DNA of 64,000 nt from assembly GCF_055900595.2 (NCBI RefSeq), contig NZ_CM148325.1; one strand, written 5' to 3'. Shown here in pieces: positions 49 to 59,390 of this stretch; position 1 is the first letter of the stretch, and the number at the start of each line of letters is the position of its first letter. The notes below the pieces were generated by a model that worked only from the letters and a program-made list of their open reading frames with translations, had not been told where the DNA came from and made no database searches. The position numbers and the translations under genes are program-made.

Positions 49-1137
49 ATGCGTAAGCAGTGGCTCGGGATCTGCATCGCGGCAGGAATGCTCGCGGCAT
101 GTACAAGCGATGATGGTCAGCAACAGACGGTAAGTGTACCGCAGCCTGCGGTATGTAACGGCCCCATAGTTGAAATTAGCGGGGCGGACCCGCGTTTCGA
201 ACCACTGAACGCGACGGCAAATCAGGATTACCAGCGCGACGGTAAAAGCTACAAAATCGTGCAGGATCCGTCTCGATTTAGCCAGGCGGGACTGGCGGCA
301 ATCTATGATGCCGAACCCGGCAGTAACCTGACGGCCTCTGGCGAAGCATTCGATCCGACACAGCTGACAGCGGCCCATCCAACGCTTCCGATCCCCAGCT
401 ACGCCAGAATCACTAACCTGGCTAACGGGCGAATGATCGTGGTGCGCATTAATGATCGCGGTCCTTACGGCAACGACCGCGTTATTTCGCTTTCTCGCGC
501 GGCAGCTGACCGTCTTAACACGTCAAACAACACCAAAGTTCGTATCGATCCGATTATTGTCGCCCAGGATGGTTCGCTTTCTGGTCCTGGTATGGCCTGT
601 ACCACAGTTGCCAAACAGACTTACGCCCTGCCTGCACCTCCCGATTTAAGCGGTGGCGCGGGAACAAGTTCAGTGTCTGGCCCGCAGGGTGACATTCTTC
701 CGGTCAGTAATTCGACGCTAAAAAGCGAAGATCCGACCGGCGCGCCGGTAACCAGCAGCGGTTTCCTCGGTGCACCAACGACGTTAGCGCCTGGTGTGCT
801 GGAAGGCAGCGAACCAACACCTGCGCCACAGCCCGTTGTTACAGCTCCCTCGACAACGCCTGCAACCTCGCCTGCAATGGTGACACCGCAAGCCGCCTCG
901 CAAAGCACTAGCGGCAACTTTATGGTGCAAGTTGGGGCCGTAAGCGATCAGGCGCGTGCGCAACAGTACCAACAGCAACTGGGACAGAAGTTCGGCGTCC
1001 CCGGTCGCGTAACTCAAAATGGCGCGGTCTGGCGGATCCAGCTTGGCCCATTCGCCAGCAAAGCCGAAGCCAGTACCTTGCAGCAACGTTTGCAAACCGA
1101 AGCCCAATTACAGTCATTTATTACCACCGCGCAGTAG
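49..1137 (+). CDS. rlpA: Septal ring lytic transglycosylase / rare lipoprotein A, with C-terminal SPOR domain
   Basis: 362-aa ORF; lipoprotein signal with lipobox LAAC; Pro/Thr/Ser-rich linker; recognised RlpA sequence. Confidence 0.93.
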   Translation: MRKQWLGICIAAGMLAACTSDDGQQQTVSVPQPAVCNGPIVEISGADPRFEPLNATANQDYQRDGKSYKIVQDPSRFSQAGLAAIYDAEPGSNLTASGEAFDPTQLTAAHPTLPIPSYARITNLANGRMIVVRINDRGPYGNDRVISLSRAAADRLNTSNNTKVRIDPIIVAQDGSLSGPGMACTTVAKQTYALPAPPDLSGGAGTSSVSGPQGDILPVSNSTLKSEDPTGAPVTSSGFLGAPTTLAPGVLEGSEPTPAPQPVVTAPSTTPATSPAMVTPQAASQSTSGNFMVQVGAVSDQARAQQYQQQLGQKFGVPGRVTQNGAVWRIQLGPFASKAEASTLQQRLQTEAQLQSFITTAQ

Positions 1138-1276
1138 CGTAAAGCAGGCATCTGATGTGTCAATTTCTGTAAATGACGTTAACAAAGTCACGCGGAAAGT
1201 CAGATGCCTGCCGGTAGTGCATTTGCTATAGTAGGGCACTTTTTTTAATTCCATCACGGATGTCGTAGTTCAGACC

Positions 1277-2488
1277 ATGAATACCATTTTTTCCGCTCGT
1301 ATCATGAAGCGCCTGGCGCTCACCACGGCTCTTTGCACAGCCTTTATCTCTGCTGCACATGCCGATGACCTGAATATCAAAACTATGATCCCGGGTGTAC
1401 CGCAGATCGATGCGGAGTCCTACATCCTGATTGACTATAACTCGGGCAAAGTGCTCGCCGAACAGAACGCAGATGTCCGCCGCGATCCTGCCAGCCTGAC
1501 CAAAATGATGACCAGTTACGTTATCGGCCAGGCAATGAAAGCCGGTAAATTTAAAGAAACTGATTTAGTCACCATCGGCAACGACGCATGGGCCACCGGT
1601 AACCCGGTATTTAAAGGTTCTTCGCTGATGTTCCTCAAACCGGGCATGCAGGTTCCGGTTTCTCAGCTGATCCGCGGTATTAACCTGCAATCGGGTAACG
1701 ATGCTTGCGTCGCCATGGCCGATTTTGCCGCTGGTAGCCAGGACGCTTTTGTTGGCTTGATGAACAGCTACGTTAACGCACTGGGCCTGAAAAACACTCA
1801 CTTCCAGACCGTGCACGGTCTCGACGCTGACGGTCAGTACAGCTCCGCGCGAGATATGGCGCTGATCGGCCAGGCGTTGATCCGTGACGTACCGAATGAA
1901 TACTCGATCTATAAAGAAAAAGAATTTACGTTTAACGGTATTCGCCAGCTGAACCGTAACGGCCTGTTATGGGATAACAGCCTGAATGTCGACGGCATCA
2001 AAACCGGACACACTGACAAAGCAGGTTACAACCTTGTTGCTTCTGCGACTGAAGGCCAGATGCGCTTGATCTCTGCGGTGATGGGCGGACGTACTTTTAA
2101 AGGCCGTGAAGCCGAAAGTAAAAAACTGCTAACCTGGGGCTTCCGTTTCTTCGAAACCGTTAACCCACTGAAAGTAGGTAAAGAGTTCGCCTCTGAACCG
2201 GTTTGGTTTGGTGATTCTGATCGCGCTTCGTTAGGTGTTGATAAAGACGTGTACCTGACCATTCCGCGTGGCCGCATGAAAGATCTGAAAGCCAGCTATG
2301 TGCTGAACAGCAGTGAATTGCATGCGCCGCTGCAAAAGAATCAGGTCGTCGGTACTATCAACTTCCAGCTTGATGGCAAAACGATTGAACAACGCCCGCT
2401 GGTTGTGCTGCAAGAAATCCCGGAAGGCAACTTCTTCGGCAAAATCATTGATTACATTAAGTTAATGTTCCATCACTGGTTTGGTTAA
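1277..2488 (+). CDS. dacA: D-alanyl-D-alanine carboxypeptidase PBP5
   Basis: 403-aa ORF, signal peptide, SLTK (SxxK) active-site motif, recognised DacA sequence. Confidence 0.95.
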
Positions 2489-2597
2489 AAATCGAACACT
2501 TGAAAGTGTGATTTCCGCCCCCATATACTAAGCATCAGTAAAAAACTCCCGCCTTCTGGCGGGAGTTGCTATTTAATTACGTTACGCCGGAGCTGAC

Positions 2598-2861
2598 ATG
2601 AAAACCAAACTTAACGAACTGCTTGAATTCCCTACTCCTTTTACTTACAAAGTTATGGGGCAGGCGTTACCTGAGCTGGTTGATCAGGTGGTTGAAGTGG
2701 TACAGCGCCATGCGCCAGGTGACTACACCCCAACGGTAAAACCAAGCAGCAAAGGCAACTACCACTCGGTATCTATCACTATCAACGCCACTCATATTGA
2801 GCAGGTTGAAACACTGTATGAAGAACTGGGCAAAATCGATATTGTCCGCATGGTTCTGTAA
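2598..2861 (+). CDS. ybeD: UPF0250 protein YbeD
   Basis: 87-aa ORF matching YbeD; conserved position upstream of lipB. Confidence 0.9.
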
Positions 2862-2961
2862 CTCGCGTATTCTTTACCCGGCCCCTGGTCGGGTAACTCC
2901 CCTCTCCTCGCTGTGATATACTTTTCCCCCACTTTTACTCATTCTCCACGGAGATGCCGTT

Positions 2962-3603
2962 TTGTATCAGGATAAAATTCTTGTCCGCCAGCTCGGTCTT
3001 CAGCCTTACGAGCCAATCTCCCAGGCTATGCATGAATTCACCGATACCCGCGATGAAAGTACTCTTGATGAAATCTGGCTGGTCGAGCACTATCCGGTAT
3101 TCACCCAAGGGCAGGCAGGAAAAGCGGAGCACATTTTAATGCCGGGCGATATTCCGGTGATCCAAAGCGATCGCGGTGGGCAGGTGACTTATCACGGGCC
3201 GGGGCAACAGGTGATGTATGTGTTGCTTAACCTGAAACGCCGTAAACTCGGTGTGCGTGAACTGGTGACCTTGCTCGAGCAAACAGTGGTGAATACCCTG
3301 GCTGAACTGGGTATAGAAGCACATCCTCGGGCTGACGCGCCTGGTGTCTATGTCGGGGAAAAGAAAATTTGCTCACTTGGCTTACGTATTCGGCGCGGTT
3401 GTTCATTCCACGGTCTGGCATTAAACGTCAATATGGATCTTTCGCCATTTTTACGTATTAATCCTTGTGGGTATGCCGGAATGGAAATGGCTAAAATATC
3501 ACAATGGAAACCCGAAGCGACAACTAATAATATTGCACCGCGTTTGCTAGAAAATATTTTAGTGCTACTAAACAATCCCGACTTCGAATATATTACCGCT
3601 TAA
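2962..3603 (+). CDS. lipB: Octanoyltransferase (lipoyl(octanoyl) transferase)
   Basis: 213-aa ORF beginning at TTG ([12 protein letters not shown]...), matches LipB, which is known to use a TTG start. Confidence 0.92.
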
Positions 3604-3862: not shown

Positions 3863-4816
3863 GTGGATAGTAATAATCAAATTGAACCCTGTTTAAGCAG
3901 AAAGTCGTCAGAAGGTAAACCACAAATATTTACAACCTTACGAAATATTGATCTTAACCTTCTGACTATTTTTGAAGCTGTGTATGTGCATAAAGGGATC
4001 GTTAATGCAGCGAAAGTGCTTAATCTGACACCCTCGGCAATCAGTCAGTCTATTCAGAAACTGCGCGTTATATTCCCTGACCCATTGTTTATTCGCAAAG
4101 GCCAGGGCGTCACTCCTACTGCATTTGCAATGCATTTGCATGAGTATATCAGTCAGGGCCTTGAATCCATTCTCGGCGCGCTGGATATCGAAGGAACCTA
4201 TGATAAGCAACGAACGATAACTATCGCGACCACCCCCTCGGTCGGAGCCCTGGTCCTTCCTGTCATCTATCGGGCGATTAAATCTCACTATCCGCAGCTT
4301 TTACTGCGCACCCCCCCCATCAGCGACGCGGAAAACCAACTCAGTCAGTTTCAAACCGATCTCATCATCGATAACATGTTTTGCACCAATCGTACGGTGC
4401 AACATCATGTTCTGTTCACCGACAATATGGTGTTAATTTGCCGCGAGGGAAATCCGCTACTCTCTTTAGAAGATGACAGAGAGACTATTGACAACGCTGC
4501 GCATATACTCCTGTTACCGGAAGGGCAAAATTTCAGCGGTCTGCGGCAGAGAGTTCAAGAGATGTTTCCGGACCGGCAAATCAGTTTCACCAGCTACAAC
4601 ATTTTGACAATCGCTGCACTGGTTGCCAACAGTGACATGTTAGCGATTATTCCCAGCCGTTTTTATAACCTGTTTAGCCGTTGCTGGCCGCTGGAAAAAC
4701 TGCCTTTTCCGTCCTTAAATGAGGAGCAAGTAGATTTCTCTATCCACTACAACAAATTCAGCCTGCGTGATCCCATCCTGCACGGGGTAATAGATGTTAT
4801 CCGTAATGCATTTTGA
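3863..4816 (+). CDS. ybeF: LysR-family transcriptional regulator YbeF
   Basis: 317-aa ORF with GTG start; N-terminal HTH (LTPSAISQSIQKLR); paralogous to YbdO later in the window. Confidence 0.85.
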   Translation: MDSNNQIEPCLSRKSSEGKPQIFTTLRNIDLNLLTIFEAVYVHKGIVNAAKVLNLTPSAISQSIQKLRVIFPDPLFIRKGQGVTPTAFAMHLHEYISQGLESILGALDIEGTYDKQRTITIATTPSVGALVLPVIYRAIKSHYPQLLLRTPPISDAENQLSQFQTDLIIDNMFCTNRTVQHHVLFTDNMVLICREGNPLLSLEDDRETIDNAAHILLLPEGQNFSGLRQRVQEMFPDRQISFTSYNILTIAALVANSDMLAIIPSRFYNLFSRCWPLEKLPFPSLNEEQVDFSIHYNKFSLRDPILHGVIDVIRNAF

Positions 4817-6020: not shown

Positions 6021-6051
6021 AAAAAACCCGCTTTTTGAAGCGGGTTTTTTG
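6021..6051. terminator. Bidirectional rho-independent terminator between convergent lipA and tatE
   Basis: aaaaaacccgctttttgaagcgggtttttt: GC stem flanked by A-run and T-run. Confidence 0.75.
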
Positions 6052-45358: not shown

Positions 45359-45573
45359 GGGGTATAACCTGAAAATGAGTCCAATAGGGGGAAATCTCCA
45401 CGGCGCTCACTTTACCAGTTGGTGAGAATTATCCGAAGCTGAAGTTTGTAAATTCCTCCCACTGAATGCAACATTCACTCTATTTCAGAGAAATATCCGT
45501 TAAATTGATAAATTAAATAAATAATAAACCCATAATCATTTATTGTAATTATGGGTTTATAGATAATATAAAT

Positions 45574-59352: not shown

Positions 59353-59390
59353 AAAAATCCGCTCTCATCGAATGGATGAGAGCGGATTCA
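59353..59390. terminator. Hairpin terminator in the ybdG / pheP convergent spacer
   Basis: aaaaaatccgctctcatcgaatggatgagagcggattc: 13-bp stem; the A-run on plus gives a T-run after the hairpin on the minus (pheP) strand. Confidence 0.65.

Follow-up and report, generated by a model that had tools for sequence, protein, structure and literature searches.

The perfect inverted repeat between rlpA and dacA probably forms the closing stem of a conserved 68-nt hairpin (1144-1211) of the plus-strand RNA, located in the 3′ untranslated region of rlpA (mrd operon), which would define and protect the 3′ end of this transcript. The window considered here is the whole stretch of 64,000 nucleotides, the plus strand of which carries rlpA, dacA, ybeD and lipB in that order. 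The rlpA coding sequence (49-1137, stop codon TAG at 1135-1137) was placed from the open reading frame list and the RefSeq annotation of identical E. coli DNA, and the coding sequence of dacA, which encodes PBP5 (1277-2488, ATG at 1277), from the same list and annotation. The repeat sits in the 139-nt spacer between them. Its left (5′) arm, GCAGGCATCTGA (1144-1155), starts 7 nt past the rlpA stop codon, and its right (3′) arm is TCAGATGCCTGC (1200-1211). Both arms are 12 nt long, 100% complementary and separated by 44 nt, as the sequence-only reading had described and as a repeat finder also returned.

The inverted repeat on its own is suggestive, its chance occurrence being just mildly improbable. 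The 64-kb window has four loci with a perfect inverted repeat of 12 bp or more and a spacer of 3-60 nt, as compared with a mean of 0.22 per Markov shuffle, and about 22% of the shuffles had at least one. The others lie at 6021-6050, 45524-45560 and 59356-59388, the one at 6021-6050 being a textbook intrinsic terminator after lipA (AAAAAACCCGCUUUUUGAAGCGGGUUUUUU). The main support for the element comes from its folding energy and from covariation between species, rather than from the repeat itself. The region is nearly universal in E. coli: bases 1100-1300 were matched in 5424 of 5426 complete genomes, and most of the sampled rows, including O157:H7, were 100% identical. The element is present in single copy, with a median of one place per genome across these 5424 genomes. 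This, together with the single covariance-model match in the window, led to the rejection of a dispersed repeat of the REP/BIME or ERIC type. The MG1655 spacer differs from the window only by a run of six T instead of seven at 1240-1246, so that MG1655 coordinates are obtained, for positions up to 1240, as 665239 minus the window position.

The plus-strand RNA of 1144-1211 folds with a predicted free energy of -31.4 kcal/mol (z -7.7 relative to shuffled sequences), and the ability of the two arms to form an RNA stem-loop, suggested earlier from the letters, is thus borne out by folding as well as by covariation. The minus strand of the same segment folds less well (-23.5 kcal/mol, z -4.0). The hairpin is built from an outer helix of 12 bp, or 13 bp if U1156·G1199 is counted as a possible extra RNA pair, followed by an interior loop, an inner helix of 7 bp (1164-1170/1192-1198), which is rich in G·U and has U·G pairs that are conserved, and an apical helix of 4 bp, which is conserved only weakly. 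Its base is GC-rich (GCAGGC/GCCUGC). In Escherichia, the stem can be extended further by an Escherichia-specific pairing of GCAGUAGCG (1131-1139), a segment including the rlpA stop codon, with CGGUAGUGC (1212-1220), which is also the spacer of the dacA promoter. The extended fold of 1131-1222 reaches -40.8 kcal/mol and leaves only AU unpaired at its 3′ end. E. albertii and a divergent E. coli strain (L002) differ from E. coli at 1212 and 1216, with pairing kept as wobbles. When the 10-nt spacer was shuffled, the extension of the stem toward the U-run gave a mean z of -0.55 across species (-1.75 in E. coli), and was rejected on this ground as a general feature; the same test supports it in Escherichia, in a Cedecea-like group and in some Erwinia.

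A scan for DacA, with one genome retained per species, provided 80 Enterobacterales loci, from which an alignment of 49 distinct Enterobacteriaceae sequences was prepared. Owing to register shifts, RNAalifold returned only six pairs on the plain MAFFT alignment, and pairs were counted instead on the explicitly specified E. coli structure. This structure is 75% paired over the 49 sequences, as compared with at most 44% when the register is slid by 1-3 columns. Pairing in helix 1 amounts to 82.5%, with double (compensatory) changes at 7 of its 12 pairs, so that the expectation of arms conserved through compensatory changes in other Enterobacteriaceae is confirmed. Helix 3 is 78% paired, with one inner-helix pair found as GC in 11 sequences and as CG in 10. 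Other pairs alternate between UA (23) and CG (20), or between AU (15), UA (7) and CG (2). The covariation score (0.19-0.21) exceeds the values obtained by shuffling columns (0.135-0.146) and was reached by none of 500 shuffles. The UA/CG switch recurs within Citrobacter, and U·G intermediates are seen at that pair in 3 of the 49 sequences, including one Kosakonia, which means that more than one event took place. One-sided changes are mostly wobbles of the plus strand (44 G·U versus 21 A·C), and U·G is retained at two pairs, in 36 and 41 of the 49 sequences. This excess and these conserved pairs point to the plus-strand RNA, rather than to the symmetry of the DNA, as the object of selection.

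The long hairpin folds in every Enterobacteriaceae genome, with the conserved (A/G)GATGCC block as its 3′ arm, and the conserved TGcTATAGT motif downstream keeps a nearly constant distance of 82-99 nt from the rlpA stop (82-91 nt in all but one genome). A covariance model derived from the Enterobacteriaceae sequences gives one match in the 64-kb window (103 bits) and detects held-out Erwinia and Mixta loci at E values of at most 2.8e-5, [Erwinia] mediterraneensis (L051) being weaker at 2.3e-4. The hairpin is thus kept in the 49 Enterobacteriaceae and in several Erwiniaceae. Yersiniaceae and Hafniaceae are marginal with this model (E 0.007 or worse) and have a short conventional hairpin directly after the rlpA stop in place of the long one, which is a different solution for the same job at the same position. 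Within the Enterobacteriaceae alignment, the mean major-allele frequency is 0.87 for the right arm, 0.79 for the 44-nt spacer forming the loop and 0.69 for the left arm, and ATGCC at 1204-1208 is 92-100% conserved over the 49 species. No Rfam family was recognized in a scan of 900-3000, where only chance-level matches were obtained, the best one overlapping the element being MIR477 (16.4 bits versus a gathering threshold of 65, E = 5.3).

The asymmetry between the arms has a counterpart in the promoter of dacA, which starts its own transcript downstream of the hairpin. In each of the nine conditions covered for EDL933, Cappable-seq places the dacA start at 745136(-) (PMC10469882, supplementary file 6). 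The dacA ATG of this strain is at 745097, which corresponds to a 5′ untranslated region of 39 nt, and its rlpA-dacA spacer is 139 nt long, as in the window; conversion through the ATG distance and this equal spacer length yields A1238 as the start. The 38-nt leader of K-12, as read from the same table, agrees with its run of six T (PMC10469882). With the start at A1238, TGcTATAGT (1224-1232, the -10 hexamer being 1227-1232) lies at the right distance to be the extended -10 element, the right arm therefore covers the -35 region (-38 to -27), and the seven T at 1240-1246 become positions +3 to +9 of the dacA mRNA. TGcTATAGT is invariant in the 49 Enterobacteriaceae and retained in Serratia, Yersinia, Erwinia and Rahnella. 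The putative -35 hexamer ATGCCT (1204-1209, 17-bp spacer) falls within the right arm, in line with the order-wide conservation of (G)ATGCC/ATGTC, and this arm is probably contacted as such by RNA polymerase, the left arm not being involved. The higher conservation of the right arm fits with a promoter-constrained sequence, which the left arm follows through compensatory changes. A pattern scan for promoters and terminators missed the dacA promoter and gave no terminator at the inverted repeat, its settings being too strict for an extended -10 element with a weak -35 and for a 44-nt loop. A literature search returned nothing relevant on an rlpA-dacA terminator or on a study of the dacA promoter.

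Transcript 3′ ends do map to the foot of the hairpin, which was one of the outcomes looked for. The published Term-seq analysis of MG1655 lists an end on the rlpA strand at 664018 in LB at OD 0.4 (91,306 reads), and at 664017 in LB at OD 2.0 (41,794 reads), and calls none there in M63 (Adams et al. 2021 eLife; PMC7815308, supplementary file 1). After verification of the -50 to +10 sequence convention of this table on the cspE terminator, these ends correspond to A1221 and U1222 of the window, i.e., -17 and -16 of the dacA promoter, between its -35 and -10 elements. Their distance downstream is 10-11 nt from the core stem, or 1-2 nt if measured from the Escherichia-specific extension, and they coincide exactly with the AU left unpaired in the extended E. 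coli fold. The read counts are high compared with those of neighbouring ends on the same strand. The filter applied by Adams et al. dropped the LB 0.4 end as part of the upstream gene and kept the LB OD 2.0 end, which implies a transcription start 21-200 nt upstream in that condition (PMC7815308); a short independent transcript may thus contribute to the signal at OD 2.0. MG1655 663900-664009, a segment including the T-run, is free of called 3′ ends, and the table of Rho termination regions has no entry with coordinates 6639xx or 6640xx (PMC7815308), where the dacA promoter would in any case mask read-through. The text of that study is silent on rlpA and dacA (PMC7815308). As to where these RNAs begin, rlpA has its own starts at EDL933 746467 and 746499, 142 and 174 nt 5′ of its ATG, in all nine Cappable-seq conditions (PMC10469882). 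Both lie inside mrdB, upstream of the start of the window, and they, rather than the mrd operon promoter, may therefore be the origin of much of the RNA that ends at the hairpin.

The opposite strand also shows a weak 3′ end at 1138 (Term-seq 664101(+), 1166 and 1788 reads), 6 nt past the hairpin on the minus strand. Two promoter-like features were seen on that strand. A possible divergent -10 element, TACTAT (reverse complement of 1228-1233), would start near 1221 an antisense RNA of about 84 nt, consisting of the hairpin. A perfect TTGACA (reverse complement of 1158-1163) is present in the loop, with TACGCT (reverse complement of 1136-1141) 16 nt further on, and this pair (1136-1163) would point into the 3′ end of rlpA.

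The following sequence of events would account for these observations. RNA polymerase coming from rlpA would transcribe the hairpin, and the mature RNAs would stop at 1221/1222, at the foot of the structure and inside the dacA promoter. The primary end may be made at this place or slightly downstream, either by a weak, U-poor, hairpin-dependent termination or by an RNase E-type cleavage between GCA and UUUGC. The 3′-to-5′ exonucleases would then halt at the base of the stem, extended in Escherichia, leaving a stable rlpA 3′ end. The right arm would be constrained as DNA by the -35 region of dacA, and the left arm would evolve so as to keep pairing with it. Such an arrangement would have the likely benefit of keeping upstream transcription out of the strong and independent dacA promoter. 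A route through Rho followed by trimming finds no support in the Rho-region table at 663900-664099, where masking by the strong dacA promoter is possible. By reasoning, promoter-bound RNA polymerase acting as a roadblock was discarded, as was a sigma-dependent pause, since ends would then be expected at about 1165 or about 1242, and not at 1221/1222.

How the end is produced divides the readings that accept the hairpin as a transcript-end structure. Trimming or cleavage back to the stem is tentatively preferred, at a little under even chances, over a direct intrinsic release, because the hybrid at the mapped end is GC-rich. In the latter case, which is less probable, the hairpin would form in the RNA exit channel and RNA polymerase would be released at about 1221-1229, with the imperfect tract AUUUGCUAU (UUUUGCUAU in many genera) acting as the U-tract. 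The GC-rich stem base and the distance of the 3′ ends from the core stem are compatible with such a factor-independent terminator. For roughly half of the species, the minimum-energy stem comes to 2 nt or less from the conserved UUU(U)GC, strong extensions abut UUUUGC in some genera (L038-L041, L040, L066, L074), and the weak end of the opposite strand follows UUUAC, as at bidirectional terminators. However, the RNA:DNA hybrid at the mapped end would be CGGUAGUGCA, the 10-nt tail that follows the core stem, which is about 60% GC and not U-rich. The sequence after the stem, CGGUAGUGCAUUUGC, offers just UUU, 11 nt after the core stem and 2 nt after the lineage-specific extension; this extension is not conserved overall, and the pattern scan detected no terminator at the hairpin. 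Compared with a canonical intrinsic terminator, a stable GC-rich stem-loop is present and the U-tract of about 4-8 U directly 3′ of it is missing, the 44-nt structured loop being atypical. At such terminators, RNAs end within the U-tract at 7-9 nt from the foot of the stem; here the distances are 10-11 nt (core stem) or 1-2 nt (extended stem). The sequence-only reading had proposed a terminator or attenuator using the downstream T-run. This run starts 29 nt past the right arm and beyond the dacA start, so that presenting it as following the repeat misleads. What stands from it is a terminator-type RNA hairpin with transcript 3′ ends, and neither the T-run as its tail nor the attenuation can be kept. 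An attenuator, either of read-through from rlpA or in the dacA leader, would combine the long-range stem with the T-run and with a small hairpin at 1216-1240. The latter can indeed fold just before U7, and is mutually exclusive with the extension strand at 1212-1220, which superficially evokes a terminator/antiterminator pair. But transcription of dacA starts at 1238, so that the T-run belongs to the first transcribed bases and the leader begins only beyond the long hairpin. None of the called 3′ ends coincides with the T-run, and the small hairpin has little stability (-8.1 kcal/mol, z -2.0), its 5′ half varying without compensation and its 3′ half being kept as promoter and start-site sequence. 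Attenuation by way of the T-run is thus largely refuted, and is the least probable of all the readings.

Protein binding to the DNA had been the other suggestion, the arms then being operator half-sites or looping sites for a regulator of dacA. The position of the right arm over the -35 region, and an invariant palindrome TGTnA-N7-TnACA (1168-1184) lying between the arms and centred near -62, a typical activator position, would agree with such a site, as would the reported binding of BolA to the dacA promoter. In contrast, 56 bp separate the centres of the arms, which at about 5.3 helical turns do not share the same face of the helix, and the two arms are unequally conserved (0.87 versus 0.69). 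The one-sided G·U changes and the U·G pairs of the inner helix break the symmetry of the DNA while preserving RNA pairing, and the foot of the structure is where RNA 3′ ends map. The arms are therefore very unlikely to be a symmetric protein-binding site, a reading scarcely more probable than attenuation. In another proposal, the hairpin would make up the body of a stable small RNA that comes from the rlpA 3′ untranslated region or is transcribed independently, and whose conserved apical loop would serve for recognition or as a seed. The abundant Term-seq reads, the start implied by the filter at OD 2.0 and a loop more conserved than the left arm all speak for it. Against it, the element has no Rfam family, a literature search found no paper tying rlpA or its 3′ untranslated region to a small RNA, and neither the pattern scan nor visual inspection revealed a convincing upstream promoter. 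Upstream promoter DNA of dacA could also account for loop conservation, and the sole complementarity noticed, 9 of 10 positions between loop segment UUAACAAAGU and the 5′ end of the dacA mRNA, is of low complexity, shows no covariation and was treated as chance. The small RNA is thus improbable, its low probability being kept alive by loop conservation and by the start implied at OD 2.0. This conservation (0.79, above the 0.69 of the left arm) is beyond what a mere protective hairpin explains. TGTnA-N7-TnACA could be an upstream element or factor site of dacA, or a functional RNA loop. Alternatively, upstream promoter DNA of dacA and terminator RNA of rlpA would be superimposed in one sequence. 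A stable small RNA with UGUnA...UnACA (1168-1184) as its recognition loop, or such a dual-use 68-bp module coupling the expression of two peptidoglycan enzymes, is taken together an unlikely proposition, and the transcript-end hairpin is preferred.

Some further observations concern the loop palindrome and the dacA leader. TGTnA-N7-TnACA has the T-N11-A form of LysR-type boxes, and an uncharacterized LysR-type gene, ybeF, lies at 3863-4816. A CRP site at this palindrome was rejected in view of its 7-nt rather than 6-nt spacer. A CpxR-like GTAAA-N5-GTAAA was likewise set aside, with a good fit in Rahnella only and a distance to the -10 element that shifts by 5 bp between families. In most Enterobacteriaceae outside Escherichia, a 6-bp palindrome, TATAGC-NTTT-GCTATA, overlaps the dacA -10 element and could form a second small hairpin (loci L003-L005, L012, L015-L018, L020, L021, L023, L025, L027, L028, L031, L037 and L050, at about 1436-1456 in their own numbering, equivalent to 1213-1232 of the window); E. 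coli lacks it and has GTAGTGCATTTGCTATA instead. The dacA mRNA begins with A-C-U7 (1238-1246); K-12 has T6 at this place, and other genera T5-T8. With a T-run so early in its transcript, the promoter is reminiscent of the UTP-sensitive ones with reiterative transcription, such as those of pyrBI, codBA and upp. Further down the leader, the motif CCAUCACGGAUGUYGU (within 1250-1276) is conserved across Enterobacterales and contains a two-codon mini-ORF, AUG UCG UAG (1260-1268). No Shine-Dalgarno sequence is found 5-10 nt ahead of the dacA AUG, and the leader has no predicted structure (z -0.08). Beyond dacA, a 10-bp GC-rich hairpin at 2544-2580, ACUCCCGCC-UUCU-GGCGGGAGU followed by UGCUAUUUAAUU, looks like a terminator or partial terminator between dacA and ybeD. 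It is the source of the weak Rfam matches in the scan of 900-3000, and the main Term-seq end of the dacA-ybeD operon comes after ybeD (662338).

A transcript-end hairpin at this place gives a function to an unannotated, orphan 3′ end of the published E. coli Term-seq data, and sets the 3′ boundary of the mrd-rlpA transcript. It also means that the core promoter of dacA, and thus of PBP5, is embedded in the terminal hairpin of the preceding gene. Changes made in these 68 bp, for example in rlpA deletions or in dacA promoter fusions, can consequently alter both rlpA 3′-end formation and dacA transcription. No general concept is changed by the rlpA-dacA hairpin, which provides a small and clean case of a constrained promoter half serving as template for a co-evolving RNA arm.

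Among known systems, intercistronic mRNA stabilizers such as the REP elements of malE-malF are also stable hairpins lying between co-oriented genes, and the rlpA hairpin could, like them, give the upstream mRNA its own protected 3′ end. Unlike them, it is single-copy and is followed by a gene with its own strong promoter. With canonical intrinsic terminators, such as that of lipA at 6021-6050, it shares the GC-rich base, the location at the end of a gene or operon and a 3′ end a few nucleotides downstream, as well as, with the bidirectional ones, a weak 3′ end on the opposite strand. It departs from them by a structured loop of 44 nt, as compared with 3-8 nt, and by the lack of a U-tract directly after the stem. 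A further precedent comes from E. coli, where steady-state 3′ ends were described directly past U-poor, stable stem-loops by which PNPase and RNase II are kept off (Dar & Sorek 2018 NAR; PMC6061677). The rlpA hairpin likewise displays a sharp 3′ end just past a stable stem-loop in a 3′ untranslated region, followed by no U-rich tail, and its presumed role would be the same, namely to block PNPase and RNase II. In contrast to the Rho-type ends of that study, the Rho-region table has no entry at 663900-664099, the hairpin, with its 68 nt and two helices, exceeds the usual length and has a 3′ arm doubling as a -35 region, and little untranslated sequence, most of it structured, precedes dacA. The element is thus an unannotated example of a well-known class, a fairly ordinary transcript-end hairpin packed unusually tightly against the next promoter.
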